A stretch of DNA of 64,000 bases from Squalus acanthias (GCA_030390025.1 CM059431.1:96846001-96910000), one strand, 5' to 3'. Counted from the first letter of the stretch, positions 1,198 through 57,837 are shown. The notes: generated by a model from the sequence alone, not told the origin. Numbers and translations are program-made.

Positions 1198-1328
1198 CTG
1201 CTCCACGAGCCTTCCTACCAAATTATTCATTTCACTCAATGCTACTTTTCCACCAAAATTAGAAAAGGTGGGAAAACCAGCACCAAAGGGGTCAGAGGCC
1301 ACTCGAAAGGTGGAAAGAAGCAAGTGAA
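1198..1328 (-). CDS. Candidate exon (HLLLSTFRVASDPFGAGFPTFSNFGGKVALSEMNNLVGRLVEQ), unknown protein
   Basis: Acceptor catttctttcag, open frame, and possible donor CAG|gtacca (phase 1-0). An upstream donor CAG|gtaagt at 1448 gives a 120-nt intron. The frame is conserved in the copy at 11183-11313. Confidence 0.35.
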
Positions 1329-1786
1329 CTGAAAGAAATGATTTCTCTGTGTAAGGCTATGAAAGACAATCTTGGTCCTTCTACAAGGGAGGATACTGAA
1401 ATGCTCCATAATCCTAGGTGTCATAAAGGGAGAAACCTTTACACTTACCTGTATCTCGGTACCTTGTGTTTCTGTGTTTATCTTTTAGGATTGCTAGTTA
1501 GAGGCAGCTTGATTAGAAAGATTTTGTGTTGAATTTGCTCCACTGTGACATGCTGAGGTTCCACCGCAGTGAGATCATGAATGAAAATTGTCCGCAGATC
1601 GTGATTCATGATGTCACAGGAGGAGAAATTCTCCCCAGAATGTCTGCTTCTGTCTCCCTCCAACGGGCAGGTTTACAGCATTAAATGCAGCAACAGGAGG
1701 TGACTGAAAGGTACATATAAGCATGCAGCTTTCAAGCATTTGGACTATTAGCCAATTTCAGAGACAAACGGCTAGAAATCTAATTG

Positions 1787-4700
1787 GGTGTGCAGGGGGA
1801 GTGTGGTTGCAGGGTTTGGGGGGTGCAGGGTTTGGGGGGGTGCAGGGTTTGGGAGTGCAGGGTTTGGGGGGTGCAGGGTTTGGGGGTGCAGGGTTTGGGG
1901 GTGCAGGGTTTTGGGGGTGCAGGGTTTGGGGGTGCAGGGTTTGGGGTGACAGGGTTTGGGGGGTGCAGGGTTTGGGGGGTGCAGGGTTTGGGGGGGTGCA
2001 GGGTTTGGGGGGGTGCAGGGTTTGGGGGGGTGCAGGGTTTGGGGGGTGCAGGGTTGGGGGGTGCAGGGTTGGGTGGGTGCAGGGTTTGGGGGGAGCAGGG
2101 TTTGGGGGGTGCAGGGTTTGGGGGGTGCAGGGTTTGGGGGTGCAGGGTTTGGGGGGTGCAGGGTTTGCGGGGGGAGCAGGGTTTGGGGGGAGCAGGGTTT
2201 GGGCGGAGCAGGGTTTGGGGGGAGCAGGGTTTGGGGGGTAGCAGGGTTTGGGGGGGTGCAGGGTTCGGGGGGAGCAGGGTTTGGGGGGGGGCAGGGCTTG
2301 GGTGGAACAGGGTTTGGGGGGGAGCAGGGTTTGGGGGGAGCAGGGTTTGGGGGGGAGCAGGGTTTGGGGGGGAGCAGGGTTTGGGGGATGCAGGGTTTGG
2401 AGGGGTGCTGGGTTTGGGGGGTGCAGGGGGAGTGTGGTTGCAGGGTTTGGGGGGGTGCAGGGTTTGGGGGGGTGCAGGATTTGGGGGGGTGCAGGGTTTG
2501 GGGGGTGCAGGGTTTGGGGGGAGCAGGGTTTGGGGGGGAGCAGGGTTTGGGGGGAGCAGGGTCTGGAGGTGAGCAGGGTTTGGGGGGGAGCAGGGTTTGG
2601 GGGGGAGCAGGGTTTGGGTGGTGCATAGTTTTGGGGGGAGCAGGGTTTTGGGGGGAGCAGGGTTTGGGGGGGAGCAGGGTTTGGGGGGAGCAGGGTTTGG
2701 GGGGGAGCAGGGTTTGGGGGGAGCAGGGTCTGGGGGGAGCAGGGTTTTGTGGAGAGCAGGGTTTGGGGGGGAGCAGGGTTGGGGGGTAACATGGTTTGGG
2801 GCGAGCAGGGTTTGGGGGGAGCAGGGTTTGGGGGGGTGTAACGTTTGGGGGGTGCAATGTTTGGGGGGTGCAGGGTTTGGGGGTGCAGGGTTTGGGGGTG
2901 CAGGGTTTGGGGGTGCAGGGTTGGGGGGAACAGGGTTGGGGGAGCAGGGTTTGGTGGGGTGCAGGGTTTGGGGGGGAGCAGGGTTTGGGGGGAGCAGGGT
3001 TGAGGGGGGAGCAGGGTTGGGTGGGTGCAGGGTTGGAGGGGGGTGCAGTGTTTGGGGGGTGCAGGGTTTGGGGGGAGCAGGGTTTGGGGGGGAGCAGGGT
3101 TTGGGGGGAGCAGGGTCTGGAGGTGAGCAGGGTTTGGGGGGGAGCAGGGTTTGGGGGGGAGCAGGGTTTGGGTGGTGCATAGTTTTGGGGGGAGCAGGGT
3201 TTTGGGGGGAGCAGGGTTTGGGGGGGAGCAGGGTTTGGGGGGAGCAGGGTTTGGGGGGGAGCAGGGTTTGGGGGAGCAGGGTCTGGGGGGAGCAGGGTTT
3301 TGTGGAGAGCAGGGTTTGGGGGGGAGCAGGGTTGGGGGGTAACATGGTTTGGGGCGAGCAGGGTTTGGGGGGAGCAGGGTTTGGGGGGGTGTAACGTTTG
3401 GGGGGTGCAATGTTTGGGGGGTGCAGGGTTTGGGGGTGCAGGGTTTGGGGGTGCAGGGTTTGGGGGTGCAGGGTTGGGGGGAACAGGGTTGGGGGAGCAG
3501 GGTTTGGGGGGGTGCAGGGTTTGGGGGGAGCAGGGTTTGGGGGGAGCAGGGTTGAGGGGGGAGCAGGGTTGGGTGGGTGCAGGGTTGGAGGGGGGTGCAG
3601 GGTTTGGGGGGGTGCAGGGTTTGGGGGGAGCAGGGTTGGGGGGGAGCAGGGTTTGGGGGGATCAGGGTTTGTGGGGGAGCAGGGTTTGGGAGGAGCAGGG
3701 TTTGGGGGGGAGCAGGGTTTGGGGGGGGGTGCTGGGTTTGGAGGGGTGCAGGGTTTGGGGGGTGCAGGGTTTGGGGGGTGCAGGGTTTGGGGGGGGGAGC
3801 AGGGTTGGGGGGGTGCAGGGTTGGGGGGGATCAGGGTTTGGGGGGATCAGGGTTTGGGGGGTGCAGGGTTGGGGTGCTGGGTTTGGGGGGTGCAGGGTTT
3901 GGGGGGTGCAGGGTTTGGGGGGGTGCAGGGTTTGGTGGGTGCAGGGATTGGGGGGGTGCAGGGTTTGTGGGGGTGCAGGGTTTGGTGGGTGCAGGGATTG
4001 GGGGGTGCAGGGTTTGGGGGGTGCAGGGTTTGGGGGGGGGTGCTGGGTTTGGAGGGGTGCAGGGTTTGGGGGGTGCAGGGTTTGGGGGGTGCAGGGTTTG
4101 GGGGGGGGGAGCAGGGTTGGGGGGGTGCAGGGTTGGGGGGGATCAGGGTTTGGGGGGATCAGGGTTTGGGGGGTGCAGGGTTGGGGTGCTGGGTTTGGGG
4201 GGTGCAGGGTTTGGGGGGTGCAGGGTTTGGGGGGGTGCAGGGTTTGGTGGGTGCAGGGATTGGGGGGGTGCAGGGTTTGTGGGGGTGCAGGGTTTGGTGG
4301 GTGCAGGGATTGGGGGGTGCAGGGTTTGGGGGGGTGCAGGGTTTGGGGGGGGTGCAGGGTTTGGTGGGTTCAGGGATTGGGGGGGTGCAGGGTTTGGGGG
4401 GGGTGCAGGGTTTGGGGGGGTGCAGGGTTTGGGGGGGTGCAGGGTTTGGGGGGTGCAAGGCTTGGGGGATGCAGGGTTTGGGTGGGTGCAGGGAGTGGGG
4501 GGGTGCAGGGAGTGGGGGGGTGCAGGGAGTGGGGGGGTGCAGGGAGTGGGGGCTGCAGGGAGTGGGGGCTGCAGGGAGTGGGGGCTGCAGGGAGTGGGGA
4601 TGCAGGGAGTGGGGGCTGCAGGGAGTGGGGGCTGCAGGGAGTGGGGATGCAGGGCGTGGGATGCAGGGGGTGATGTGCGGGGTCCAGGGGTGGGGCATGC

Positions 4701-4818
4701 GGGGCTGGGGTTCATGTGTTTGGGGTTGCAGCGGTTGGGGAACTGCAGGTGTGGGGTGTGAAGAGGATGCATGTGGAGGGGGGTGTGCAGGGGAGGGGAG
4801 CAGAGGGTGGGGGGGGGG
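1787..4818 (+). repeat. G-rich minisatellite, 15-17 bp unit GGGGGG(T/A)GCAGGGTTT, shifting to GGGGGCTGCAGGGAGT at the 3' end
   Basis: Directly visible tandem array of ~3 kb with internal higher-order duplications. Confidence 0.95.
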
Positions 4819-5215
4819 CACTTCCTACACCAATTAATGTGACTGCAGGCAACATGCAAGATCTGTGCATGCAGCCAGTGCTACCCGTGCTACTCAGTGG
4901 CTGCAGGCCTATTGGGGGGGTCGGGGGGGGGGGGAGCGGTGGAGTCTGTGACGTTACTTAAAGGCAGCCAGCACTTCTTAAAGGGGAGAGCAGTCTGGCT
5001 GCAGAGGCTATGGAGCAAGTTGAGGAAGGAATGGCTGACGGAGGGAGAGACTGAGCACCAAGGTTCTCTGATGCTGCACTATAGGCCTTGGTGCAGGCAG
5101 TGAACAGGAGGAGGGACATCTATTTCACCCAGTGGGTAGGAAGACCTCCAGGCATCTGGTGAGGAGGCAGTGGGAAGAGATTGTTGAGTGTGTCAATGCC
5201 AGAATCCGCTTTGCC
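4819..5215 (+). pseudogene. Decayed Harbinger Myb/SANT-like gene, 5' part
   Basis: Translates MADGGRD*APRFSDAAL*ALVQAVNRRRDIYF/GRKTSRHLVRRQWEEIVECVNAR, aligning with RAQRFSERALDALVGTVERRRSILF..W.EVA..VSSR at 43908. It shares the upstream motif ttcttaaaggggag with ~43803. Confidence 0.75.
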
Positions 5216-5269
5216 TCGTCAGATTGCTCCCTCGCCCCACACACCTGCACATGCCTTTAACAACCAGCG

Positions 5270-6410
5270 GTATGAAGAATGAGCAGGAAAGCGGGTTTAG
5301 ACTGGGTGGGATTTAAAGCGTTCGGGGAGTGAGCAGGAGAGTGGGATTAGAGTGGGTGGGATGTTAAAGGGTACGGGGAGTGAGGGGGAGAGTGGGATTC
5401 GACTGGGTAGGATTTTAAAGGGTACAGGGAGTCAGGGGGGAGAGTGGAATTAGACTGTGTGTGATATTAAAGGGTACGGGGAGTGCGCAGGAGAGTTGGA
5501 TTAGACTGGGTGGGATATTAAAGGGTACGGGCAGTGAGCAGGAGAGTTGGATTAGACTGGGTGGGATATTAAAGTGTATGGGGAGTGAGCAGGAGTGTGG
5601 GATTAGACTGGGTGGGATGTTAATGGGTACGGGGAGTGAGCAGGAGAGTGGGATTAGACTGGGTGTGATATTAAAGGGTATAGGGAGTGAGCAGGAGCGT
5701 GGGATTAGACTGGGTGGGGCATTAAAGGGTACGGGGAGTGAGGGGGTGAGAGGGATTAGATTGGGTGGGATATTAAAGGCTATGGGGATGGAGCAGAAGA
5801 ATGGGATTAGACTGGGTGGGATATTTAAGGGTGAGGGGGTGAGTGGGATTAGACTAGATGGGCTATTTAAGGTTATGGGGAGTGAACAGGAGAGTGGGAT
5901 TAGAATGGATGGGGTATTAAAGGATACGGGGAGTGAGCAGGAGAGTGGGATTAGACTGGGTGGAATATTTAAAGTTATGGAGATTGAGCGTGAGAGTGGG
6001 ATTAGGCTGGGTGGGATGTTAAAGGGTACGGGGAGTTAGCAGTACAGTGGGATTAGACTGGTGGGATACTAAAGGGTATGGGGAGTGAGCAGGAAGTGAG
6101 ATTGGAATGGGTGGGATATTAAAGCGTTCGGGGAGTGAGGGGGCAGAGTGGGATTAGACGGTGGGATATTAAAGGGTACGGGGAGTGAGCAGGAGAGTGG
6201 GATTAGACTGGGTGGGATATTAAAGGGTTTGGGGAGTGAGGGGGAGAGTTGGATTAGACTGGGTGGGGCATTAAAGGGTTTGGGAGTGAGGGGGAGAGTT
6301 GGATTAGACTGGGTGGGCTATTAAAGGGCACGGGGAGTGAGCAGGAGAGTGGGATTAGACTGGGTGGGATATTAAAGGGCACGGTGAGTGAGCAGGCGAG
6401 TGCGATTATA
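5270..6410 (+). repeat. 51-bp satellite (GGGGAGTGAGCAGGAGAGTGGGATTAGACTGGGTGGGATATTAAAGGGTAC), ~22 copies
   Basis: Tandem array; 17-aa periodicity in the spurious ORFs. Confidence 0.95.
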
Positions 6411-7584
6411 TTATATTATGGAATTCGGGGAATGAAGCCATAAACTCTGGAGTATTAAAGATGCTGTTATGAGCATTGTGGGCTTTGAGGGAACTAACGG
6501 TCGATGGGCCCAATGACCTCCCTCATCAGTATGCAACTTTGTGACTTTGTAAACATTAATACTCATCGCTATTTTAGAGAAAGTTGGCAGTTTCTGTGAT
6601 GTAATGAATATCTGAATATTCCTTCCACGGTGTTAGCAACCCTACTTAAAATGGAACAGTAAGTAATTTGAAAAACATTTTAAAATTCTTGTTTCAGGTT
6701 TCAGGTCTGTCTTAGGTATTTCCTCAGGTACAATGCTGGTCACTCTTGTAAGTGGTCTCAGCATCTTATGTTCAGGAGTCTCCCCAATCTTTAATTATAT
6801 GTAACCGGGCTCTAACAATCGGACCTGTTTGTACAGTGAGGACACATACAAATGCTTTGGCTCAGACACCAAGTGAAGGCACTGGGGAAAATTTTCATCC
6901 TCACCGCATGGGCAGTGGTCAGATGGAGTGAATCGCCCAGCTGCTATGGAAACCGCTTGATTTTCATTCTATTGAAATCCGCTCTGTCAGATTAGCAGCC
7001 GTTGGGTGAAGACATAAATTTACCCAAAGTAACAGTCAAAGCAAATCATATTTTCTTACTTAAATCTCATTTGTTTCCTCAAAAGCATGGGGATGAAATG
7101 CTAAACACTGTGCCCTGCCATTTTCATGGTTTGGTTTTTGGGCATTATGATACTTTCAGATTCCTTCCACCTGCAAAAACACAGAGCTGTTGCACAGACA
7201 TTCGTTCAAACCTTCCTGTCTCTGTGTCCCTTTTCTCTGTTAATTCTGATCCCAGGAAGCAGTGGAGTTAGTGCCTGTCCCAGCAGGTTTCTCAGCCAAA
7301 CCAATTATCCGGTCCCCCGGGCGTACATTGCCCACGGACACCTGATGCTGTGCCACATGAATAGAACCACCCTCCACAGAAGTCTGTTAATACTTGTTGG
7401 CTGCCTCACACTGCATGACCAATTTCCCCATGTCCCTGCTCACCTGGCTCATGTGCACACTTTGCAAAACTGCAGCCGTGGCCTTTCTTTGTAAACCAGT
7501 GCGGATTCACTTTGTTTTAAAACACAATTCTAAAACATTGCTCAATCCCAAAATCCTTTCTGTGATAGAAAAAGGTCAAAAATT

Positions 7585-8975
7585 GCAAAGCATTTCCTTA
7601 TGTCACCCCTGGTTCTATTGTCAATCACTTTAAATCTGTGTCCTCTGGTTACCAAAGCTCCTGCCACTGGAAACAGTTTAATCTTTTTTACTCTATCAAA
7701 ACGCTTCATGATTTTGAACACCTCTATCTAATATCCCCTTAACCTTCTCTGCTCTAAGGAAAACAATCCCAGATTCTTCAGTCTCTCCATATAACTGAGG
7801 TCTCTCCTCCCTGGTACCATTCTAGTAAATCTCTTCTGCACCCTCTCCCCCTCTAAGGCCTTAACATCCTTCCTAATGTGTGGTGCCCAGAATTGAACAC
7901 AATACTCCAGCTGTTTTATAAAGGTTGAGCATAACTTCCTTGCCTATGCCTCTATTAATAAATCCAAGGATCCTGTATGCCTTCTTAACAGTCTTCTCAA
8001 GTTGTCCTGTCACCTTCACCCCCAAGTCTCTCTGTTCCTGAACCCCCTTTAAAATTGTATCATTTAGTTTATATTGCCTCTCCTCATTCTTCCTACCAAA
8101 ATGAATCACTCCACACTTCTCTGCGTTAAATTTCATCTGCCACGTGTCTGCCCATTTCACTATGTCCTCCTGAAGTCTGTTACTATTCTCCTCGTTGTTT
8201 ACTACATTTACGAATTTTGTGCCATCTGAAAATTTTGAAATAGTGTCCTGTACATCCGTCCAGGTCATTAATATATATCAAAAAGAGCAGTGGTCTGAAA
8301 ACCGACCTCTGGGGGACACCACTGCACACTTCCCTCCAGTCTGAAAAACAACCGTTCACTACTACTCTCTGCTTTCTGTCCCATAATCAATTTTGTATCC
8401 ATGCTGCCAATGCCTCTTTAATCCCATGGACTTTAATTTTGCTAATAAGTCTATTATGTGGCACTTAATCAAACACCTTCTGAAAGTCCATATACACAAC
8501 ATCAGCTGCACTACCCTCATTAACCCTCTCCGTTAATTCATCAAAGAGTTAGTGAAACATGATTTTCCTTTAACAAATCAGCAGTGACTTTCATTTATGA
8601 GCCCATATTTTTCCAAGTGCCAATTAATTTTGTTCCGGATTATAATCTCTGAAAGTTTCCCCACCACCGACGTTAGGTTGACTGGCCTGTAATTGCTGGA
8701 TTTATCCCTCTCCCCTTTATTGAACAGGAGTGTAATATTTACAATTCTCCAGTTCTCTGGCACCACCCCTATATCTAAGGAGGATTGGAAGATTATGGTC
8801 AGAGCCTCCACAATTTCCACCCTTCGTTCCCTCAGTAACCTAGGCTGCATCCCATCTGGACCGGATAACTTTTCTACTTTGAGTACTGCCAACCTTTTAA
8901 ATTCCTCCTCTTTATACATTTTTATCCTATCCAATATCGCTACTGCCTCCTCCTTTGCCACTACATTGGCAGCAT
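7585..8975 (-). mobile_element. Degraded CR1 LINE ORF2 (reverse transcriptase) fragment
   Basis: Minus-strand ORFs with GPDG, NYRPVNLTSVVGK, ISKFSDGTK and WQMKFNAEKC motifs; frameshifted. Confidence 0.9.
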
Positions 8976-9162
8976 TCTGTTTTAAACCACAGCACAGGCA
9001 CCTGTCAATAGCTTGTCTATATCAGCAAGTGTAAACCACGACCAAGTCTGAACACAAGCTAAATGGTTTCTTCTTAAAGTCATACTCAGCCAGGGCTACT
9101 GGCAGTGAGCGCCTTTGAATCTATAAAATTCACCACTGAAATAGACTGTGCCTCGCTCTTAC

Positions 9163-9222
9163 CGTGTAATATATGGACAAGAGGTTTCTGAGAACGTGTC
9201 TCCACATTGGGTGTGTGCAGGC
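9163..9222 (-). CDS. Candidate 60-nt symmetric exon (LHTPNVETRSQKPLVHILH in phase 1)
   Basis: Strong acceptor cccccattctctcttctgcag and donor CACG|gtaaga; identical copy at 22742-22801. Confidence 0.5.
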
Positions 9223-9345
9223 CTGCAGAAGAGAGAATGGGGGAATCTGGGAATTCTGCTTCAAACTATCCACAGAAACATCATTAGTAACGTTTGGACA
9301 AAACAGTAATTGAAACTATTTCGGCACCTTTTGACATTTAAACAG

Positions 9346-9590
9346 TACCCTTTAATATCCCACCCAGTCTAATCCCACTCTCCCCCTCACTCCCCACACC
9401 CTTTAATATCCCACCCAGTCGAATCCCACTCTCCCCCTCACTCCCCACACCTTTTAATATCCCACCCAGTCGAATCCCACATGCCTGCTCACTCCACATT
9501 TCCTTTAAAATCTCACCCAGTCTCATACCACTCTCCTGCTCAGTCGCCATATACTTTAATATCCCACCCAGTCTAATCCCACTCTCCTGC
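9346..9590 (-). repeat. Short inverted block of the 51-bp satellite (~5 copies; ~2 copies at 22928-23017)
   Basis: Reverse complement of the 51-bp unit. Confidence 0.9.
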
Positions 9591-9802
9591 TGTAAACCCC
9601 AGAGCTGTAGGCATTGACACACCTTGAGGTGCTACCCTTGGAGATAGTGGGTCGACAGTCCATGGTACACATCGGAGAGGGGCGTGCAAGTGGTGTCCCC
9701 AAGTCTACAGGTAGTAAATATTCTGCAATCTTTCACTTCACTCAAGAAATGGTTTATTCACCTGCGTCTTCTGCCAATTAAGCTGTCACCATGACCTCAT
9801 AC

Positions 9803-9883
9803 CAAAGGCTGCTGGATATCTGTCCCAAGGGATGTCTGCAGATTCCAATTCAAGCCTTTCCCATTGTGTTTCCATAGGGCCAC
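9803..9883 (-). CDS. Candidate 81-nt phase 1-1 exon (GPMETQWERLELESADIPWDRYPAAF)
   Basis: Acceptor ttcctgctcttcag, donor TTTG|gtatga, open frame; copy at 23229-23309 and distant paralog at 56358-56438. Confidence 0.5.
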
Positions 9884-10284
9884 CTGAAGAGCAGGAACCA
9901 TTAGGGCCAGAGGCAGAGTGCATGGCCGTTTCTCACCTACTTTTCCAAGTTTTACTCATCCTCTGCCTCATGATCACCTTTACACTTTGACTGAAATTAC
10001 CAAATGTAGGAAAGTATAGGGCAAAATTATTTCATTCTTTCTCTAGTGGACTTGAATGGAAGTAAAATTACTGGCCAATCTATTTTTAAATGTATAAGAG
10101 GATTTTGTGACCGTGCCTTGGCTACAGTATTACACCTCCGTTCAGGAAACAGAATAGTTCTGTGCTATGACATCCAATCCATGCTGAAATATACTGCCGG
10201 CCTCTAACTGTAGCCCTCAGCACCGCAATCTTTGCTCAATCTTTCACAATGATCTGCTTCAAAATCATCAGACCTTGTGCTTAC

Positions 10285-10398
10285 CGTATAACATGGATAA
10301 CAATAACCCGTCAGCATTTTTCTCAGTGCTGTCATTGGTATAATCCACCACTACGTCCGAGTCAGTCGGAGAGGGCATCACATCATCCTTTGAAATAT
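10285..10398 (-). CDS. Candidate 114-nt phase 1-1 exon (ISKDDVMPSPTDSDVVVDYTNDSTEKNADGLLLSMLY)
   Basis: Acceptor ttgtttattatag, donor TACG|gtaagc, open frame; copy at 23714-23827 and a truncated copy at ~430-447. Confidence 0.5.
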
Positions 10399-10624
10399 CT
10401 ATAATAAACAATTCAAACGTATTCGATTAAAAACAAGGTCAGCAGGTAAATCATCTCTGTGCAAATATAACACTAAATGAACAGTTAACTATATCTTGAC
10501 TCAGTCACATCTATCTAAGTCTCTGCAATGTAAGAAGGGGCCAGAGTTTCCTTGTTAACGTAAGTGTGTAAAGCACCAGCTGGGTGAGGGCACTTAGGAA
10601 AATGGTTTATGTTGATTACCTGGA

Positions 10625-11113
10625 CTCAGGTGTGGGGGACGGCAGAGAGATAAACGGATGAGTGTGAGGGAGCGAGGGTGGTGAAAACAATTATCTGCTG
10701 AGGCGCAGAGTGGTCACACACAGTTGTCAAAAACAGAGTGTAAAGTTGGGAATTTGGTGAGAGTGTGAATTCGGTGCAGAGGGGGAAAGAGGTGCTGCAT
10801 TTTGCCTCCAATACCTGTAGTGGTTTGTGTAAGCTTGAGGCTATAAGTATTGAAACTTTTGTCCAGTGTTTTAGTGCTTAGTGCAAATTAGTGTGTAAAA
10901 AAAACTTACAACCGACTAAAAAGTAGGTATAAATAATCTAGACTAAGATATAACAGCGCAGGTTGTATGTCTGGACTCCAGTATGTGGGAGATTATGGAG
11001 AGCGAGACTGTCCCGAGCGAACATGTCTGCAATAGATGTCACCATCTCGAATCTCTCCGGCTCAGAGTCATTGAGCAGTCTGGACAGTTTGCTCCAGATC
11101 TTGGTCACACCTC
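10625..11113 (+). mobile_element. CR1 LINE 5' fragment, second copy
   Basis: Near-identical to 680-1128, with the same internal deletion and the same breakpoint. Confidence 0.8.
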
Positions 11114-11182
11114 GTAGCGTAATGTTTTTAAATCTGTTTTTGGAGGGGTAAAGCTCTTCAGTGGAGCAGTGAACACTGGTAC

Positions 11183-11313
11183 CTGCTCCACGAGCCTTCC
11201 TACCAAATTATTCATTTCACTCAATGCTACTTTTCCACCAAAATTAGAAAAGGTGGGAAAACCAGCACCAAAGGGGTCAGAGGCCACTAAAAAGGTGGAA
11301 AGGAGCAAGTGAA
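11183..11313 (-). CDS. Candidate exon, duplicate of 1198-1328
   Basis: Same splice signals and open frame. Confidence 0.35.
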
Positions 11314-12009
11314 CTGAAAGGAATGATTTCTCTGTGTAAGGCTATGAAAGACAATCTTGGTCCTTTTAAAAGGGAGGGTACTAAATTGCTCCGTAATCCT
11401 AGGTGTCATAAAGGGAGAAAACTTTACACTTACCTGTATCTCAGTAACCTTGTGTTTCTGTGTTTATCTTTAAGGATTGCTAGTTAGAGGCAGCTTGAAC
11501 AGAAAGATTTTGTGTCGAATTTGCTCCACTGTGACATGCTGAGGTTCCACCACAGTGAGATCATGAATGGGAATTGTCCGCAGATCGTGATTCATGATGT
11601 CACAGGAGGAGAAATTCTCCCCAGAATGTCTGCTTCTGTCTCCCTCCAACGGGCAGGTTTACAGCATTAAATGCAGCACCAGGAGGTGACTGAAAGGTAC
11701 AAATAAGCATGCCGCTTTCAAACATTTGGACTATTCGCCAATTTCAGAGACAAACGCCTGGAATTCAGATGCAAGGTGCAGGGGTTGGGGGGTTGCAGGG
11801 GATTGGGTGCAGGGGCTGGTGTATGGGGAGCCGGGATCATGTGTGCGGGGGTGGGTTACATGGGTTGGGGGTGCAGATGTGGGGGTTGCAGGAGGTCGGG
11901 GGAGCAGGTGTACGGTGTGCAGATGTCCGCGGGCTGGGTGTGGTGCAGGGGTGGGGAGTGTAGAGGGTACATGGGTAGGGTGCAGGTGTGGTGAGCTGGG
12001 CTGGGGGGG

Positions 12010-12509: not shown

Positions 12510-15500
12510 CGGTATGGAGAATGAGCAGGAAATTGGATTTAGACTGGGTGGGGTATTAACGGCTGTGGAAAGTAAGCAGGAGAGTTGGATTGGACTGGGT
12601 GGGATATTAAAGGGTACGGGGAGTGTGCAGGAGAGTGGGATTAGAACGGGTGGGATATTAAACAGTATGGGGAGTGAGCAGGAGAGTGGGATAAAACTGG
12701 TTGGGGCATTAAAGGGTATGGGGAGTGAGCATGAGAGGGGGATTAGACTTGATGGGGCATTAAAGGGTATGGAGAGTGAGCAGTAGAGTGGGATTGGTCT
12801 TGGAGGGATATTAAAGGGTACGGGGAGTGAGCAGGAGAGTGGGATTAGACTGGCTGGGATATTAAAGGGTACGGGAGAGTGGGATTAGACTGGGTGTTAT
12901 ATTAAAGGGTACGGGGAGTTAGCGGGAGAGTGGGATTAGTCTGGGTGGGATATTAAAGGGTACGGGGAGTGAGCGGGAGAGTGGGATTAGTCTGGGTGGG
13001 ATGTTAAAGGGTACGGGGAGTGAGCATGAGAGTGGGATTAGACTGGGTGGGACATTAATTAACACGGGGAGTGAGCAGGAGAGTGGGATTAGACTGAGTG
13101 GGATATTAAAGGGTATGGGGAGTGAGGGGGAGAGTGGGATTTGACTGGGTGGGATACTGAAGGGTATGGGGAGTTAGTGGGAGAGTGGGATTAGTCTGGG
13201 TGGGATGTTAAAGGGTACAGGGAGTGAGCAGGAGAGTGGGATTGGACTGGGAGGGATATTAAGGGGTACGGGGAGTGAGCATGAGAGTGGGATTAGACTG
13301 AGTGGGATATTAAAGGGTACGGGAGAGTTGGATTAGACTGGGTGTTATATTAAAGGGTATAGGCAGTGGGCAGGAGAGTGGGATTAGACTGAGTGGGATA
13401 TTGCAGGGTACGGGGAGTGAGCAGGAGAGTGGGATTGGACTGGGTGGGACATTAATGTGTATGGAGAGTGCTCAGGAGACTGGGATTTGACTGGGTGTGA
13501 TACTGAAGGGTATGGGGAGTTAGCGGGAGAGTGGGATTAGTCTGGGTGGGATATTAAAGGGTACGGGAGTGAGCAGGAGAGTGGGATTAGACTGGGTGGG
13601 ATATTAAAGGGTACGGGAGTGAGCAGGAGAGTGGGATTAGACTGGGTGTAATATTATAGGGTATGGGGAGTGAGCAGGAAAGTGGGATTTGACTGGGTGT
13701 GATACTGAAGGGTATGGGGAGTTAGCGGGAGAGTGGGATTAGTCTGGGTGGGATGTTAAAGGGTAAAGTGAGCATGAGAGGGGGATTATAGAATCATAGA
13801 GTCATAGAGTTATACAGCACAGAAAGAGGCCCTTCGGCCCATCGTGTCCGCGCCGGCCATCAAGTCCTGTCTATTTTAATCCCATTTTCCAGCACTTGGT
13901 CCGTAGCCTTGTATGCTATGGCGTTTCAAGTGCTCATCTAAATGCTTCTTGAATGTGGTGAGGGTTCCTGCCTCTACCACCCTTTCAGGCAGTGAGTTCC
14001 AGATTCCAACCACCCTCTGGGTGAAAAAGTTTTTCCTCAAATCCCCTCTAAACCTCCTGCCCCTTACCTTGAAACTATGCCCCCTGGTTATTGACCCCTC
14101 TACTAAGGGGAAAAGTTCCTTTCTATCTACCCTATCTATGCCCCTCATAATTTTGTACACCTCAATCAGGTCCCCCCTCAGCCTTCTCTGCTCTAAGGAA
14201 AACAACCCCAGCCTGTCCAGTTTCTCTTCATAGCTGAAGCGCTGCAGCCCAGGTGACATCCTGGTGAATCTCCTCTGCACCCTCTCCAATGCAATCACAT
14301 CCTTCCTATAGTGTGGCAACCAGAACTGCACACAGTATTCCAGCTGTGGCCCAACTAGCGTTATGTACAGCTCCATCATAACCTCCCTGCTCTTATATTC
14401 TACGCCTCGGCTAATAAAGGCAAGCATCCCATATGCCTTTTTAACCACCTTATCTACCTGTCCTGCTGCCTTCAGGGATCTATGTACATGCACACCAAGG
14501 TCCCTCTGATCCTAGGGTCCTACCATTCATTGTGTATTCCCTTGCCTTGTTAGTCCTCCCAAAATGCATCACCTCACACTTTTCAGGGTTAAATTCCATT
14601 TGCCACTGTTCTGCCCATCTGACCAACCCGTCTATATTGTCCTGTAGCCTAAGGCTTCCCTCCTCGCTATTTACCACCCCACCAATTTTTGTGTCATCTG
14701 CAAACTTACTGATCATACCTCCTACATTCATATCTAAATCATTAATGTACACTAGAAACAGCAAAGGACCCAGCACCGATCCCTGCGGTACACCACTGGA
14801 CACAGGCTTCCAGTCACAAAAACAACCTTCGACCATCACCCTCTGCCTCCTGCCACTAAGTCAATTTTGGATCCAATGTGCCAAGTTGCCCTGGATCCCA
14901 TGGGCTTTTATCTTCTTGACCAGTCTCCCATGCGGGACTTTGTCAAAAGCCTTACTGAAGTCCATGTAGACCACATCAACTGCACAACCCTCATTAGATT
15001 AGACTGGGTGGAATGATAAAGGGTACGGGGAGGGAGCATGAGAGGGGGATTAGACTGGGTGGGATACTGAAGGGTATGGAGAGTTAGCGGGAGAGTGGGA
15101 TTAGTCTGGGTGGGATGTTAAAGGGTATGGGGAGTGAGCATGAGAGGGGGATTAGACTGGGTGGGGCATTAAAGGGTGCGGGAGAGTGGGATTAGACTGG
15201 GTGTTATATTAAAGGGTATGGGGAGTGAGCAGGAGAGTGGGATTAGACTGGGTGAGGCATTAATGTGTATGGAGAGTGAGCAGGAGACTGGGATTTGACT
15301 GGGTGGGATACTGAAGGGTATGGGGAGTTAGCGGGAGAGTGGGATTAGTCTGGGTGGGATGTTAAAGGGTATGGGGAGTGAGCATGAGAGGGGGATTAGA
15401 CTGGGTGGGATATTAAAGGGTACAGGGAGTGAGCATGAGAGTGGGATTTGACTGGGTGTGATATTAAAGGGTATGGGGAGTGAGGGGGAGAGTGGGATTC

Positions 15501-37073: not shown

Positions 37074-37123
37074 GTGAGTGCAAAATACAGGGAAAGCACA
37101 CAATAAAAGCCGCCTATACATAC

Positions 37124-40161: not shown

Positions 40162-40233
40162 CTGTCAGCTTTTCCAGCATCTGTAAGATCTGTTCCAATT
40201 GTCTCCCTGGTGACAATGGAATTCTATTCAAAC
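40162..40233 (-). CDS. Candidate 72-nt phase 1-1 exon (LNRIPLSPGRQLEQILQMLEKLT)
   Basis: Long T-rich tract then aag acceptor, donor ACAG|gttggt; copy at 48625-48696 and decayed paralog at 39348-39416. Confidence 0.5.
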
Positions 40234-40435
40234 CTTTCATTTAAAAGATACAAGAAAAAATATCGGAAAAATGTAATAATAAATGGTATTAGCAATCGCA
40301 CAAAGAGAACTAAACCAACTGGGCTTCAGACTTCTTGTTTGGGTCACTCTACCACTTCTGGGTTTTGCCCAAGATGATTTCCGTAGTTCAGGAATTGCAG
40401 TGATTGAACGGGGCTGGTTCCAGGATCGGGTGATC

Positions 40436-43020: not shown

Positions 43021-43149
43021 CTTTTCCTTTTTGCTCCATTAAGTTCACACAAAATTGCTCCCTTTAACTTTACTAAATGAATTGCAGTAAATTGCTTCAG
43101 ATTGTAGTCAAACCATGTTTGAATAATAATTAGAGGCATCGAAGCTTAC

Positions 43150-43540
43150 AGCCAGAGAGAGGACAATTACCCCATCATTTCTCTGCAACCCAAAACTAAT
43201 CCCACTACCCTGCTCTCTCCATGGCTCTGGACCTTCCTCTGCTTTAAATATTTATTTACTTTTCCTTTAAAAGATGCGATGGTCTCTGCCTCAACCATTC
43301 TTGGGGCAAATCATCCCAGGCTCCAACAACCCTCCGTAAAGAAATGTCTTCTCACTCTCTTAGTGATAATTTTAAATTGATAATCCCTCATCCCTGACTC
43401 CCCAGCCAGAGGAGATAGTCTCTCCCTATTCATTCTCTCAAAACACTTCATAATTTTCTGAATCTCTGTTAAATCTCCTCTCAGCCTTCTCTGCTCCAGT
43501 GGGAATAGTCCCAGTATCTCAAGTCTCTCCTCATGACTAT
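43150..43540 (-). mobile_element. Old degraded CR1 3' fragment (duplicate at 55380-55750)
   Basis: Antisense ORF2 end motifs (ctcctctcagccttctctgctcca; ctctgcctcaacca). Confidence 0.65.
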
Positions 43541-43907
43541 AGACTATGGGGGAAAATTCAGTATCGCCCCGTATGGGGCGCCATTATCGGCCATGAGCAA
43601 AGTTTAGTGCCTGGTGCTAATTATCGCCTCTGACTGCAAACTTGGCTTTTATTGCCCCTGGAGTTGATTGGAGTGCTAAATCAGGCGCTACACACCTGTC
43701 TTAAGGCGCAAAGGCCGAGGAGCGAGGCGCTAACTCAGAGCGCGGGCGCAGCGCAGGTGCTGTCAGTTAGCGATGGAACACAGACACACTGACGCTGGAC
43801 AGTTCTTAAAGGGGAGGGTCGATCTTGCTCTCCAGCCACACCCTGCTCATTGGAGCCTTGAATCTCGGCCTGGAGAGACCTGTGCCTAAATCATCCAGCC
43901 AAGGACT

Positions 43908-45544: not shown

Positions 45545-46012
45545 GGCCGTCCTTCAAGGGTATCTGCAGTCTCAGGTTCTGACAATCAGCAGCCTTCCAC
45601 CAGCCTTGCTGCAGCCACTGGGGCCCCATTACGGAGGAGCAGTAGGGTGGGAAGGGGGGGAAGTGCGCAAGGGAAGGAGATCACCCTTGAAGGGCAAAAA
45701 GTAGGAGGTGTGACAAAATGTTTGTCAATTTTTTATTAAAGGCCGAGGTTCGTGGTCAAACTTTTGTTTAGTGTTTTGGACATTATCTCCAGGTTGTGAG
45801 AACCAGTTATGTTAATGACTGTTTTTTTGTGTTTCTTTCTATTAGTTTGTCATGAAGAAATGACACAAGAGTTTGTAAAATAAATAAGTTTTTGTATTCA
45901 AAATGTATATGTTTGGTCTTTGGATTCATTGCTGCCTTGGCCGGCTTAGGGGTTGCGGGTTGGTTTCATTCATGTTGTTCTCAATGGCAGAAGCCATTTC
46001 CTCAGCAGGGGC

Positions 46013-47156
46013 CTAGAAGCGGCTTGCTATCGGCCGTTGACGGACGGCCCTTCCAGTTTCAAGATTGTGGGCCGCCCTCACGCCTTGGTGCTGCTGATGC
46101 TCATCCTCCTCCTCTTCCTCCTCCTCTTCCTCCTCCTCCTCCGGTGGTGCTCCAAGGCCTGGTGGCATTGGCTGGGTCCTGAGGATTGCCAGGTTATGCA
46201 GCATGCAGCACACAACTATGAAGAGGGAGACTCGCTCAGGCGAGTACTGCAGGGCTCCTCCTGAGTGGTCCAGACAGCGGAACCGTTGCTTGAGCACGCC
46301 GATTGTGTGCTCAACGATGTTCCTGGTTGCGAGATGGCTCTCGTTGTACCGCAGCTCAGCAGGGGTGTTGGGGGTACGGAGCGGTGTCATCAGCCAGGTG
46401 CACAGTGGATATCCCTTGTCCCCAAGAAGCCAACCACTTGGGTGATGCGGTGCCTGGAAAAGGTCTGCAGGATGAATGCATCGTGGCTGCTGCCAGGATA
46501 GCGGGCATTGACAGTGAGTATCAGCTGTCTGTGGTCACAGACCAACTGGACGTTTAAAGAGTGGAATCCCTTTCGGTTGCGGAAATCCTCTGCATTCTCA
46601 TGCGGTGCACGCAATGCCACATGCGTGCAGTCAATGGCACCCTGCACCATGGGGAAGCCCGCTATCCTCGCAAAGCCCAATGCGCATTCATGCTGTTTGG
46701 CCCGGGTCATCGGGAAAGAGATGTACTGTCGTCTCCTTTTATAGAGGGCATTTGTGACCTGACGGATGCAGCAATGGACAGCGAACTGGGAGATATTGGC
46801 GATGTCCCCAGTAGCTGCTTGAAATGAGCCGGTGGCATAAAAGTTCAGAGCCACTGTGATCTTCACTGCCACTGACAGAGACGTCCTGGACCTCAGTAGA
46901 GGCTGCAGATCTGGCTGCAGCAGGTGGCAAAGCTCAGTGACCACCTCCTTGCTGAAGCGCAGCCTTCGCAAACACTGCTCCTCAGACATATTAATGTAGG
47001 AGAATTGTTGGCGAAATACCCTGGGAGGGGAAGGTCTCCTGTAAGAGGCCTGTTGGCCCTCCTCTGTCTGGCCATGATTGCCACTCTCTCTCTGCGTCTC
47101 TGTGGCCTCCGAATCTGCAGGCGCAGGACAACGCCCCCAATCAGTGCAGCCCCCAC
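46013..47156 (-). pseudogene. Harbinger DDE transposase (HARBI1-like), frameshifted
   Basis: [41 protein letters not shown] and [16 protein letters not shown] motifs; frameshifts near 47050 and 46460; no ATG at the expected start. Confidence 0.92.
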
Positions 47157-48624
47157 AGTCTCTTGGCAATCAAAGCAATGAAGGTCAAAAACAAAAGTAC
47201 CTGCAAAGTGATGCTCAGTAGCCAAAACTACTTCACACAGCGTTGACTCTATGCAGAAATCTCTCCTTCTCTCTCTCAGAATCTCTCTCTCTGTCAGAAC
47301 GAGTGGTGCAAAAATGTCTACCACAGAAAAAGCCAGGAAGAGGCCACGTTTAAATAGCACCCCCCAGCCCCACAGTGACTGGGAAATGTTCCAGTCTACC
47401 TGTCGTTGCTTGCGCCAGGCAGAAAGGAGGGGGGCTCCACTCAATATCCGCTCCGGGGCGCCACAAGGGCGTTGCACACTCGAATGACGTCAAGATCTGC
47501 GTGCGCAGGAGATCGGGGCGGTATTGTTTAGCGCCGCCACAAAATATCTGGTCAATTTCACGAGCGGCGCAGATATCGCCGCGCCCGGGCACAAGTTGCT
47601 TTGCGCCCCATTAGCGCCCTCTTAAGGCGCTAACGGGAGGCGCAAACCAACTGAATTTTTCCCCCTATGAATTTCCTCAGACTGTCTGCCGCTGCACCAT
47701 CGTAACTTTGCAGAATGTGTGGCGGAAACTTCATCTATTTGAATAAATTGGGTTTCTGCCGTATTCCAGCGAGGTTACGATGGAAGTTGGAGGTAGATGT
47801 GCCTCCTGGCCCACGTACATCAATGTCACAGTTGTTTTGCCATATTTTCTGAGCGACCTGCAGTGGTTCCTTTATGGACTGCTGGTTCCGTCCTTCTCTG
47901 CCTAGTACCGAGTGTGCATGGCTACAGTTCATGCACTGCTACCTGAAAATTGCAATTGGCGTAGGACCTCCATTTGTACATTAGAATTGGACTCCTACCT
48001 GAAACAGGCGGGGCTCTGGACACTCATTTCCACGCTGTGTCAGGAATGGTGGTGGGCGAAGCGAGAGTGGGATCGGGAGCATTTTATCCCCTAGACATTA
48101 CCCCTTATCCCCTGCATCTCTGGGTATGGAGTCCCCGCCACATAGGGCTCTGCAGCTGCAGAACGGATAGATTCTTTGAGCGCAGCTCGAAGCCTCTCAG
48201 TCTCACATTCAGCCGGGAATCCAGGACCGGAACCTTCTGGAGATCACCGGTCAGAGGTCCCAGTTGCTCTGGAGTAGATTTGCATGAATCCGATTCCATT
48301 GGGCCATAGATGGATGGTGCAAACCCCTCCCCACCCCTAGCGAATCGTGGACGATCCACCCCCATTCCCGATCGAATCGTGCAAGTCCCTCCCCAGTGGA
48401 ATCGTGCCTGTGTCTACTTCAGGAGATGAAAAGCTATCCCATGGAGCTTAAACAATGATAATGTATGAGTTCTGCGGAGCTTATTGAAGTTTTTATAAAA
48501 GTGCTTTGGGATTTCTCTAGTTGCTGTAATTGCTGATGTTTTGTATCAGTCTTCCAGCCTTTTATCCAATATGAACAAAGATCAGTCACAATCTGTTTAA
48601 TGAATCATTCCCCTAAACACCAAC

Positions 48625-48696
48625 CTGTCAGCTTTTCCAGCATCTGTAAGATCTGTTCCAATTGTTTCCCTGGTGACAATGGAATTCTATTCAAAC
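48625..48696 (-). CDS. Candidate 72-nt phase 1-1 exon, duplicate (LNRIPLSPGKQLEQILQMLEKLT)
   Basis: One conservative R>K change; splice sites kept. Confidence 0.5.
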
Positions 48697-49834
48697 CTTT
48701 CATGTAAAAGATACAAGAAAAAATATCAGAAAAATGTAATAATAAACGGTATTAGCAATCGCACAAAGAGAACTAAACCAACTGGGCTTCAGACCTCTTG
48801 TTTGGGTCACTCTACCACTTCTGGATTTTGCCCAAGATGATTTCCGTAGTTCAGGAATTGCAGTGATTGAACGGGGCTGGTTCTAAGATCAGGTGATCCC
48901 AGTGAGAGTGCAGGTTGGGAAATTGTGGGCGCTCAGTTCTTGATTTTCCATCCAGTCGGATTAAAATCATAGGGCTGCAGCCTGTGACAGGCCGGTTTGC
49001 ACCAGACTTGACCACTGCTCCTCACTGGGGGCATCTGCTTTCGTCCCCAATCATGCAAATTCAACTCTATTACACGGATGTGTGGACCTTCCAAGATTTT
49101 TATTGGTGTCTTGGGGATTCTAGAAAAATGCAAAGCAGTGTCCTTGTTCACAGCTTGAAAAGGGGGAAATGATGAAAAGCCAATGGCATCTAATCTTCAA
49201 ATTTACTGCTCTCCAGATTAAGGCTGAAGCCCTCAAATTGCAAGAGGCAAAACTGGAATCCTGCCAAAGTTCCAGATTGAGGCCAGGAGATCGGTAGAGC
49301 CTATTTCTGCTGGGATTCCACCCCATATTTCACAGAGAGACATTTCCTGGTTTGGGGGGATGGTGGAGAGGGGAGGTCATGGGCAGATCTGCTGCCCGCA
49401 CCCCATGTCAGGAAGGTGTGTCCAGGGGGATGAACCCCATAGCTTTCCTGTAAATCCTGCCCAGAACATCCTTATAAGGCCTCAGCAGAACTCTCGCCAA
49501 CTGAAAGCTGTCATGAATCACGAAGGGGCCTACTGAAAGCCCTATAAACTCGATGGAGAAGTAATCAATTTTGAAGGGGACCCATCCCTTTACTTGTCTG
49601 CGAAAGTGGAAGATTGTTTGACCTGTTTACTTTGGGCAGTGACAGGTCTCAAGTACCTCTGGCCAAGAGCCCCTGGGCTGCTCTGACTTAGAATTGGCAA
49701 GTCGGAGCAGGCACTGCCAACTTGGGACAGAGACTTTGTGTTCGCCGTTCGATAAACTTCCAGCAAGTTCTGCTGACCTTTCTCCAATGGAACCAGTTGA
49801 TTGGAATCTCATTCTTCCAATGCTTATGCAGCAC

Positions 49835-50545
49835 TTCTGCGTCAGAAGGTTGTGGGTTCAAGTCCTACTCCAGAGATTTAAGCACAAAATCCAGGCCTAC
49901 ACGCCCAGTGCAGTACTGAGGGAGCGCTGCACTGTCGGAGGGGCAGTACTGAGGGAGCGCTGCACTGTCGGAGGGTCAGTACTGAGGGAGCGTCGCACTG
50001 TCGGAGGAGCTGTACTGAGGGAGTGCTGCACTGTCGGAGGGGCAGTACTGACGGAGTGCTGCACTATCGGAGGGGCAGTACTGAAGGAGCGCTGTACTGT
50101 CAGAGGGTCAGTACTGAGGGAGCGCTGCACTGTCGGAGGAGCAGTACTGAGGGAGCGCTGAACTGTCAGAGGGTCAGTACTGAGGGAGCGCGGCACTGTC
50201 GGAGGGGCAGTACTGAGGGAGTGCTGTACTGTCGGAGGTGCCTGTCTTTTGGATGAGACGTTTACCCGAGGCCCCGCCTGCCCTCTCAGGTGGATGTAAG
50301 AGATACCAGGCGACTATTATAAGAAGAGCAGGGGAGTTCTCCCCAATGCCTTGACCAATATTTATCCCTCAACCATAACATGGTCATTTATCTCATTGAT
50401 GTTTGTGGAAGCTTGCTGTGTGCAAATTGGCTGCTGCGTTTCTTACATTACAGCAGTGACTACGCTTGAAAAGTACTTCATTGGCTGTAAGAAATTTTGG
50501 GACGTCCTGAGGTCATGAAAGGTGCTACATAAATGGAAGTTATTT
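49835..50545 (+). mobile_element. Deu-domain SINE with partial tRNA head and ~10 copies of the 33-bp repeat
   Basis: B box gggttcaagtcc, Deu core and tail aaatggaagttattt. Confidence 0.85.
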
Positions 50546-55248: not shown

Positions 55249-56357
55249 CTTTTCCATTTTGCTCCATTAAGTTCACACAAAATTGCTCCCTTTAACTTTA
55301 CTAAATGAATTGCAGTAAATTGCTTCAGATTGTAGTCAAACCATGTTTGAATAATAATTAGAGGCATCAAAGCTTACAGCCAGAGAGAGGACAATTAGCC
55401 CATCATTTCTCTGCAACCCAAAGCTAATCCCACTGCCCTGCTCTCTCCATGGCTCTGGATCTTCCTCTGCTTTAAATATTTATTTCCTTTTCCTTTAAAA
55501 GATGCGATGGTCTCTGCCTCAACCATTCTCTGGGGCAAATCATCCCAGGCTCCAACAACCCTCCGTAAAGAAACTTCTCATTCTCTTAGTGATAATTTTA
55601 AATTGATAATCCCTCATCCCTGACTCCTCAGCCAGAGGAGATAGTCTCTCCCTATTCACTCTCTCAAAACACTTCATCATTTTCTAAATCTCTGTTAAAT
55701 CTCCTCTCAGCCTAGTCCCAGTATCTCAAGTCTCTCCTCATGACTATAGACTATGAATTTCCTCAGACTGTCTGCCGCTGCACCATCGTAACTTTGCAGA
55801 ACGTGTGGCGGAAACTTCATCTAATTGTGTAAATTGGGTTTCTGCCATATTCCAGCGAGGTTACGATGGAAGTAGATGTGCCTCCCAGCACTTCTCTGCC
55901 TAGTATCGATGGGTGGAGTGTGCATGGCCAGGCTGCACGCATTGCTACCTGAAAATTGCATTGGGTCCTACAACTGGCATACGACATCCATTTGCATATT
56001 AGAATTCTGCTCCTGCCTGAAACAGGCGGCGCTCTGGACCCCCATTTCCACACTGTGTCTATTTTGCGTTAGCTGAACTCCACAGTCAGTACTACCTACC
56101 TGCCCTCATTCACCCTTCTCATATGGTCACAACACGATGAATTGGTCTTCTATTATAGCCTGGTGTTCTGGGGCAAGCTCCAAATGTTCACTCACTGAAG
56201 GAGGCATCGACCCTGTGACTCGGTATTGACCAATTGTGCGCTGATGGTGTGGAGCCCACCATAGATACTAAGGCCCACAGCATCGTGGGTAAGGCCCAGA
56301 TGGCCAATTGGGTGACATCAACGCCTGGCCTTTGGGGAAAGGACTCAGTGATCAGAC

Positions 56358-56438
56358 CTTCTGCTGCTGCTGGTCCTCTGGGATAGTGATCTGCACTCTC
56401 AGTCTGCCGAGCAATTGTATTCCGGACTCCGAACGAAC
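56358..56438 (-). CDS. Candidate 81-nt phase 1-1 exon (SFGVRNTIARQTESADHYPRGPAAAE)
   Basis: Acceptor aaattcacag and a weak donor GAAG|gtctga. ESAD falls at the same offset as in the 81-nt exon at 9803. Confidence 0.35.
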
Positions 56439-56529: not shown

Positions 56530-56840
56530 TTTCTGGAGGTCGAGATAAGGTCGATAGGGAATGACTCTACCCGGCAAAAGGGGAATCCAGAACTAGGGCA
56601 ATATAACAGAATCCAAGCTAACCCGGGTAAGAGCAAATCCAGGAAAAACTTCACCACACAAGGGGCTGTGTAAATGAGTACATTCTCTCAGAACAGGAGC
56701 GATGGAGAGACAATTGAGCTTAAAAGAAGAGATGTACATACTTGAGAAAGGAGAATGTTAAGGGAAATTGAGAAAGCTGCCAGTGCTAACAGAATGGTGG
56801 AGCGGTTTGATGGCTGAATGCCGGCTGTTGTTCCTGTGGG
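56530..56840 (+). mobile_element. Highly degraded CR1 3' fragment
   Basis: Remnants of the 'gaatccagaactaggg' and 'aggaaaaacttc..cacacaaggg' ORF2 end motifs. Confidence 0.5.
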
Positions 56841-57034
56841 GTAAATTTTCATTTTCAGGGGATTCGATGGTGCAAATTTTGGTTTTGTTACCATGTTCCT
56901 GAACCTGTCAGAAGCAACTTCGAGACTGCAGTTTCAACTGTGTATCATTTTCAGTCCAATGAGGACCTCTAGTGGCTAGAACCATTGTTACACCATTATG
57001 CTGCTTGATAACTGCTGTTCTTTATATATTTGCT

Positions 57035-57315
57035 GTTGGAATGCTGGTGACACAGGCAAGGCCAGCATTTATTGCCCATCTCTAGTTGTCCTGAAAAGGT
57101 GGTGGTGGACCTTCTTCTTAAACTGCTGCAGTCCGTGTGGTGAAGGTGCTCCCACAGTGCTGTTAGGTCGGGAGTTCCAGGAGATTGACCCAGTGACTAT
57201 TAAGGAAGGGCGATATAGTCAGGATGGTGTGAGACTTGGAGCTGATGGTGTTCCCATGGAATTGCTGCTTGACCTCAGTGGAAGAGGCCACAGAGGAGGG
57301 AGGTGCTGTCGAAGT
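57035..57315 (-). mobile_element. LINE 3' fragment of a different family
   Basis: Translates ..SWNSRPNSTVGAPSPHGLQQFKKKVHHHL.. followed by aataaatgctggccttgcc; the tail is shared with the SINE at 59410-59800. Confidence 0.6.
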
Positions 57316-57837
57316 AATGATGAAGGATGATGATGGTGGGGGACTCGGAGATGGTGGCTCCATTGAAGGTGGGGGAGAAGGAGGGGTAGGGGGGTGAGGT
57401 GATGGGGGGGGGGGCATGGCCCAGTGTACCTGCAATTTCTCCCAATTAGCACCCCATAACTGACCACATGGCACACTGCCACTATAGTAGTGGTGGAATG
57501 AGCCGCACAGCAGGGAGCCTGAGGCAGATACCGTGTAAAGGAGAACATTATTGGTGAAATACCTGCAGCTTTCTAAAACTTTCCCAGGACAACTATTTTG
57601 TTTATTTTGTTGAGGTCTGGTGTTAAATCCGGTGAAATGTATGTTTTGGACTGGAAAATAGAAGAGGCGAGATTGGAGGAACTTAGAGCAAAGTCTCACA
57701 GAAGATACTGGTTTCCAACAGTCGATACTCTACTGAGTTTACTGCCCTAGAAGATCTTAGATTTCTCCGCCTGTCAGTGCCTCAGAACATTGTGCTCCCC
57801 CCCACCCCACCGCCCCCCCCCCTCCCACCAGAGACTA

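Follow-up and report, generated by a model that had tools for sequence, protein, structure and literature searches.

Does the minus strand of this stretch of Squalus acanthias DNA (GCA_030390025.1, CM059431.1:96846001-96910000), a 64-kb window numbered here from its first base, carry a gene that is built from short symmetric exons and hidden between repeats? A sequence-only reading had picked out twelve open minus-strand segments, and proposed that they belong to a modular, lineage-expanded gene or to a decaying gene family spanning the window. The string of segments appears somewhat more gene-like than chance, and we tentatively interpret at least the six strongest as genuine GT-AG internal exons of an unannotated, lineage-restricted minus-strand gene in an elasmobranch-like genome, a reading to which we give slightly less than an even chance. 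These six lie in two clusters, the first consisting of 37124-37219, 36904-36999 and 35840-35953, and the second of 23714-23827, 23229-23309 and 22742-22801. The pair 48625/40162 and segment 56358 (segments are also referred to by their first coordinate) are the least secure members. The balance tips towards genuine exons because several partly independent measures agree on one of 18 strand, length and frame classes of segments, and on two tight clusters. Transcription, splicing and translation of the candidate exons, and any function they may have, we infer from the DNA.

Anatomy and coding signal of the candidate exons

All twelve segments have the coordinates and properties that had been ascribed to them: on the minus strand each is preceded by AG and followed by GT, has a length that is a multiple of three, and is open in phase 1, i.e. 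in the frame starting at exon base 3. With an intron after the first codon base everywhere and exon lengths in multiples of three, each exon would therefore be an in-frame cassette. The proposal that the segments can be spliced in any combination without frameshift holds as well, since a stop at the junction codon arises in none of the 132 ordered exon pairs. Joined in genomic order, the twelve segments give 1041 nt and 346 codons with 0 stops, an open frame having also been a selection criterion. Eight of the twelve are independent, the other four being copies made by recent segmental duplication. Seven of the twelve segments, or five of the eight unique ones, have no open frame other than phase 1; offset 0 is open too in 56358-56438 and in the pair 23229-23309/9803-9883, and all three frames are open in 22742-22801/9163-9222. 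Most segments had been described as invisible or mis-started in a track of open reading frames (ORFs), in agreement with the finding that an in-frame methionine upstream is absent for five of the eight unique segments and lies within intron sequence for the remaining three.

Picking segments by eye raises a real concern about selection bias, as the sequence-only reading had itself acknowledged. Unique, non-duplicated sequence in the window amounts to about 17 kb, in islands between repeats delimited from the maps of repeats, duplications and long interspersed nuclear elements (LINEs). The class-level null consisted of the other 17 strand, length and frame classes in these unique islands, with duplicates counted once, candidates non-overlapping and the earlier picks unused. 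Splice sites were scored with an approximate, uncalibrated position-weight matrix. At a summed score of at least 14 the claimed class holds 7 candidates, whereas the 17 other classes average 1.7 and never exceed 4 (by a Poisson test p is 0.002, or about 0.03 when corrected for 18 classes); the corresponding figures are 8 versus 3.1 at a score of at least 13 and 5 versus 1.2 at 15 or more. These tests, independent of the earlier picks, still single out the claimed strand and phase. The class candidates at a threshold of at least 12.5 include six of the eight unique segments, three of them in island 22613-24560 and three in island 35700-37277, each trio within a stretch of 1.1-1.4 kb. Statistical support for the six segments in clusters 35840-37219 and 22742-23827 is moderate and method-dependent.

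Three further class candidates at the same threshold (674-748, 59058-59186 and 59432-59497) had not been claimed before. The latter two are open phase 1-1 segments on the minus strand with strong acceptors of 13.1 and 11.5 bits, weak donors and poor periodicity, and they lie upstream of the range that the sequence-only reading covered.

The class is also moderately enriched in coding features. In the pooled class the proportion of A at codon position 2 (A2) is 0.31-0.35, versus 0.24 in random sets of other classes, with p <=0.004 whichever matrix threshold from 9 to 15 is applied, and G1-G2 is 0.07-0.12 versus about 0.02 in other classes. For comparison, LINE ORFs of the same window have an A2 of 0.32-0.41 and a G1-G2 of 0.06-0.14. 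Codon log-odds, based on uncalibrated human usage and set against an empirical null from 638 decoy frames, come to +0.003 per codon in the claimed set and -0.126 in decoys, and range from -0.11 to +0.11 in real transposable element ORFs; the claimed set has a p value of 0.0014 and the unbiased class one of 0.0105. In a composition-controlled test, in which each segment's claimed frame was contrasted with its two remaining frames, the mean contrast was 0.120 for the claimed frames, 0.135 for chunks of real ORFs and 0.041 for decoys. An amino-acid composition score, and a composite containing it, were dropped because the positive control failed, transposable element ORFs scoring no better than decoys (-0.055 versus -0.020). 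CpG retention is 0.48 in the exons versus 0.33 in the islands, a difference that is not significant and is driven by one exon.

Acceptor anatomy points in the same direction. Upstream of the claimed acceptors the AG-free zone has a median length of 48 nt, compared with 18 nt in a set of 398 decoys with similar matrix scores (p 0.004), and it exceeds the decoys' 90th percentile in five of the eight segments. Read cover over 22700-37300, in 30 depth bins, is near nil at 23187-24160 and 35849-37300, and high at 24.2-35.8 kb. It derives from four low-depth, repeat-dominated contig runs, none of them on record as RNA, the best of which covers 0.06 of the sampled words in 35800-37250, and since these runs are contigs of uncertain kind the cover is silent on expression. 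Among the joints listed for the same runs (15 of 276), none falls at a proposed intron.

In the first cluster, candidate exon 37124-37219 (minus strand, 96 nt, phase 1-1) has a strong acceptor of 9.8 bits and a weak donor, GCA/gtatgt, of 3.2 bits by the uncalibrated matrix; its phase-1 frame is the sole open one and has the best periodicity of the three frames. It is followed by a putative intron of 124 nt (37000-37123, minus strand), which is pyrimidine-rich with a (CT)n run, is AG-free over the 45 nt before the acceptor and ends in ...tttgtaaatttacag; between 37124 and 36999 this intron looks canonical. The next candidate, 36904-36999 (minus strand, 96 nt, phase 1-1), has a strong donor, GAG/gtgagc, and codon log-odds at the 97th percentile of decoys. 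Candidate exon 35840-35953 (minus strand, 114 nt, phase 1-1) would encode an acidic peptide, and its periodicity is not distinctive.

The second cluster opens with 23714-23827 (minus strand, 114 nt, phase 1-1), the first exon in copy B of a three-exon module of 255 nt. It has the best periodicity of 85 candidates, an AG-free zone of 54 nt, and 7 CpG (observed/expected 1.25). Candidate exon 23229-23309 (minus strand, 81 nt, phase 1-1) combines an acceptor of 11.4 bits and an AG-free zone of 51 nt with poor periodicity, and 22742-22801 (minus strand, 60 nt) has the best splice pair in the window, with acceptor 13.4 and donor 8.6. A weaker candidate is 48625-48696 (minus strand, 72 nt), whose acceptor ...catgaaag/G scores 3.8, with 74 nt upstream AG-free and codon log-odds at the 67th percentile of decoys. 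The weakest is 56358-56438 (minus strand, 81 nt), with splice scores of 4.0 and 4.0, two frames open and no periodicity. By eye, the peptides of 48625, 37124 and 36904 have in common an [IL]-S-[PS]-x motif and, after it, an amphipathic helix.

Segmental duplications and the putative three-exon module

The claim of a modular, lineage-expanded gene is supported only in so far as whole blocks of 0.5-4 kb have been copied by recent segmental duplication; the unique exon peptides show no similarity to each other. Block B (20877-24497) corresponds to 7261-11076 at 93-94% identity and contains the three-exon module, a LINE fragment and the 51-mer satellite. Block A extends over 7261-11908, and its part 10372-11908 also matches 430-1923 at 89-91%. 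Segments 10285, 9803 and 9163 are thus the copies of 23714, 23229 and 22742, and 40162 is the copy of 48625 through a smaller duplication (39953-40435 = 48416-48898, 97.7%). All four copies are on the minus strand. That of the 114-nt exon (10285-10398) has two differences, one synonymous and one Thr>Met; that of the 81-nt exon (9803-9883) has two, both non-synonymous; that of the 60-nt exon (9163-9222) is identical; and that of the 72-nt segment (40162-40233) has one, Lys>Arg. The AG and GT are intact in both members of every paralogous pair. No conservation peaks at the exons were found in the duplicated block.

A third, older block copy (430-1923) retains a 27-nt remnant of the 114-nt exon (430-456, minus strand; 8 amino acids, 87.5%). 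When the window was searched with the exon peptides by tblastn, nothing was recovered beyond the known copies and a non-significant partial match at 39349-39390 (minus strand) to the 3' half of the 72-nt segment, with 9 of 14 residues at E 0.03. This possible degenerate partial copy keeps three Leu through synonymous changes and has a similar donor region; a stop lies immediately before it, and its splice sites are poor. Either chance or the long decay of a former copy could account for it, and it is not significant after 8 queries.

If the candidate exons are spliced together, the product would be hydrophilic and acidic, with a pI of about 4.9 and little Cys or Trp, and, judging from its composition, would probably be largely disordered. 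Recent segmental duplication of a satellite-bordered block of about 3.6-4.6 kb, at a spacing of about 13.4 kb, would then have copied the three-exon module (114+81+60 nt, 85 codons) in frame, which may lengthen the protein or create alternative cassettes. The smaller duplication would have done likewise for the 72-nt segment. Extending this, the locus might be an orphan, lineage-restricted gene of a cartilaginous fish whose coding sequence is now growing through satellite-bordered, in-frame cassettes of three exons and 85 codons, an idea that we rate as unlikely. We have equally low confidence that it shows a disordered protein in the making, assembled from duplicated symmetric exons and with no detectable relative in other proteomes.

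Repeats and mobile elements of the locus

The window is vertebrate-like and very repeat-rich, and its tandem repeats comprise six families. A 2.8-kb array of a G-rich 16-mer (TGCAGGGTTTGGGGGG, about 174 copies) occupies 1808-4654, with a GC skew of up to 0.8, and adjoins and truncates the third copy of the duplicated block. A 51-bp satellite forms at least five arrays in both orientations (5280-6408, 9347-9591, 12511-13765, 14997-18400 and about 22920-23020); among these are arrays within the duplicated block, which separate the 60-nt from the 81-nt segment and differ in length between the copies. Three arrays of a 33-bp satellite are found at 19397-20545, 40435-42706 and 49910-50238, two of which adjoin the region of the duplicated 72-nt segment. 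Conserved lead-ins at 7105-7494 and 19108-19300 suggest that an array of this satellite expanded within one block copy. The remaining families are 24-, 31- and 54-mers.

Several CR1-like LINEs with reverse-transcriptase and endonuclease ORFs are present. The two long copies, 32425-35505 and 60476-63561 (both on the minus strand), are 91% identical and have ORFs for endonuclease and reverse transcriptase. Upstream of the second of these, an ORF at 63554-63889 has a weak GDSL-lipase-like match. For the two long copies the named relatives of highest identity are elasmobranch proteins. For a LINE reverse-transcriptase ORF they are annotated proteins of sharks and rays, namely Chiloscyllium, Leucoraja, Hypanus and Mobula (62-76%), and numerous entries from birds and turtles listed with them are 43-53% identical. 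An origin of the window in a cartilaginous fish is on this account reasonable. The region 43021-47787 is occupied by a Harbinger-type DNA transposon with DDE_Tnp_4 and Myb/SANT ORFs; its DDE_Tnp_4 transposase (46013-47169, minus strand) is split over two frames, and its Myb/SANT-like ORF lies at 43890-44519 on the plus strand. The ends of this element (43021-43487 and 47665-47787) recur side by side at 55249-55873 with 96% identity, which looks like an internally deleted Harbinger copy. Rfam and tRNA scans yielded nothing.

A possible spliced gene, its rivals and its relatives

A number of results weigh against genuine exons, and many of them would be expected if the segments arose by chance: the unique islands would then be ordinary non-coding DNA, in which a set of open AG..GT segments can always be assembled for one strand and phase. 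This is plausible to us, at appreciably less than an even chance, and it stays a serious rival because the prior for such a gene is low, because one of the two scorings shows no excess and because external support is absent. For the raw pattern, the frequency on the plus strand and in other phases, named by the sequence-only reading as a ground for giving up the gene, is indeed similar. Open AG..GT segments of 54-200 nt number in the thousands in every class (2692 in the claimed class, 2581-3512 in other minus-strand classes and 3512-6391 on the plus strand), and weak splice filters leave 87 versus 49-104 elsewhere. Since the simple consensus-match score gives no count excess (6 versus 3.35 and 14 versus 10.35, p>0.1), the count result depends on the scoring scheme. 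With eight segments the composition-controlled frame contrast has p 0.07, the claimed frame being the best of three in four of the eight, and in the unbiased class the AG-free zone has a median of 29 versus 20 nt (p 0.06). Decoy peptides of other classes are about equally protein-like by eye. LINEs in the putative introns, five or six sense versus two antisense, are weak evidence. Runs of short 1-1 exons are moreover rare a priori, because such exons make up 12.95% of human internal exons according to the phase statistics of Schad, Kalmar and Tompa (2013, PMC3632108). The mild enrichments could, with the same probability as chance itself, stem from a local richness in purines, from the scoring scheme chosen and from multiple testing. 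What speaks against chance is that partly independent measures pick the same one of the 18 classes (matrix count, p 0.002; A2, p <=0.004; G1-G2; log-odds, p 0.01), and that the signal is confined mainly to two tight clusters, each with three segments in order.

Homology and domain searches belong on the same side of the balance. Seven exon peptides matched no Pfam family at E<=10, and none of 258 stop-to-stop frames of at least 40 residues from the islands scored above a curated cut-off, whereas the control transposable element ORFs of the window, scanned alongside, scored clearly. The weak island matches, all below the curated cut-offs, were treated as chance. Two paralogous plus-strand frames (1517-1681 and 11488-11667) match Chromo_shadow at 18.4 and 15.1 bits, against a cut-off of 22.4; this match rests on the motif CPQIVI and is probably chance. 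None of 13 candidates was retained as a homologue for the frame around exon 23714 in a search against proteins of 92-2000 residues, and none of 296 for that around exon 37124. A HMMER search of 1.84 billion representatives with the 31-residue peptide of exon 36904 gave one match. This protein (P0003) consists of an exact 117-residue repeat in 11 copies matching weakly to 'LEGY', and was rejected as spurious because a weak local match had been summed over 11 tandem repeats. The database searched includes annotated proteins of several elasmobranchs, and the three exons are still unmatched. Queries of 31-37 residues detect close relatives only, and the null result therefore counts only weakly against a gene that evolves fast, and more strongly against one that is conserved or annotated. 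The ESM Atlas returned no usable match for two exons. Among the eight exon peptides no similarity was found (28 pairs, lowest p 0.0495). A limited literature search yielded general background only and no such shark gene, and cannot support absence from print. The proposal of a spliced gene is supported in part, by the moderate class-level enrichment of splice and coding features and by the six segments in two clusters; neither a homologue nor a domain nor a transcript was found for it, and we therefore use the word gene as a hypothesis.

The paralogous copies are no more favourable. Over 327 nt the exon copies have 5 differences, 1 synonymous and 4 non-synonymous, and the exons show no extra conservation compared with about 2 kb of sequence around them. 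Of the 114-nt exon, the third copy has been cut by a satellite and its remainder replaced by the G-rich repeat. The differences and the lack of extra conservation fit chance; together with the truncated copy they also fit a relic, either of a decaying gene or family member (a unitary or duplicated pseudogene) or of a non-coding transcript. Such a relic, which we hold to be improbable, is also consistent with the possible degenerate copy of the 72-nt segment with its upstream stop, with a locus flooded with satellites, LINEs and a Harbinger element, and with the lack of a homologue. Splice-like and coding-like features would have persisted after selection on the protein ceased, a course of events that seems just as improbable. 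Yet all twelve listed copies are still open with intact AG and GT, the differences are too few to measure selection, and a parent gene ought to be represented in the database, which includes elasmobranch proteomes, yet nothing matched. Finally, a low-copy mobile element or macrosatellite unit might carry a spliced gene of its own, in place of a host gene spanning the window. The module does lie in a repeated block, with satellites and a LINE fragment at its borders, and the same window holds an intron-bearing Harbinger element. However, island ORFs contain no transposase, integrase or other mobile-element domain (transposase, reverse-transcriptase and endonuclease domains being absent from them in the Pfam scan), and cluster 35840-37219 is single-copy in the window; we regard this origin as very improbable.

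Genes with comparable architecture are known. Tropoelastin is a cassette-exon gene of uniform phase, and triadin and ASPH/junctate have long strings of mini-exons for charged luminal domains. The candidate gene resembles these, as they are generally known, in a uniform intron phase that permits any exon combination, and in short exons with long introns; unlike them, its composition is neither elastin-like nor Lys/Glu-repeat-like, and it matches no Pfam family at E<=10. In ribonuclease-inhibitor-type leucine-rich repeats, as in NLR genes, there is one repeat per phase-1 exon, and the motif and helix seen by eye in three candidate peptides recall these. In contrast to genuine members of that group, the candidates have no match to a Pfam leucine-rich repeat profile, with its LxxLxLxxN-type consensus, and a profile of the 48625, 37124 and 36904 peptides found only synthetic Symfoil proteins in the PDB, and no leucine-rich repeat protein or other fold family. 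An identity as leucine-rich repeats was rejected, with no Pfam match at E<=10 and no significant pairwise similarity.

The architecture of symmetric 1-1 exon cassettes is known from human genes, and runs of symmetric exons, often arising through internal tandem duplication, are typical of disordered proteins, as set out in PMC3632108. Like the genes described there, the candidates are short and of phase 1-1, the peptide is predicted to be acidic and hydrophilic, and a three-exon module has been duplicated in frame. They differ from these genes in that the candidate exons are dissimilar beyond the block duplications, and in that their disorder is predicted from composition only.

If the segments are due to chance, they illustrate that any window will yield sets of open AG..GT segments of one phase, which raw counts fail to tell apart from real exons. 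If our tentative reading of genuine exons is correct, this locus would hold an unannotated, fast-evolving gene in a very repeat-rich vertebrate genome, invisible both to ORF finders and to homology-based annotation, and it would be a clean example of the gain of in-frame modules through phase-symmetric exons.

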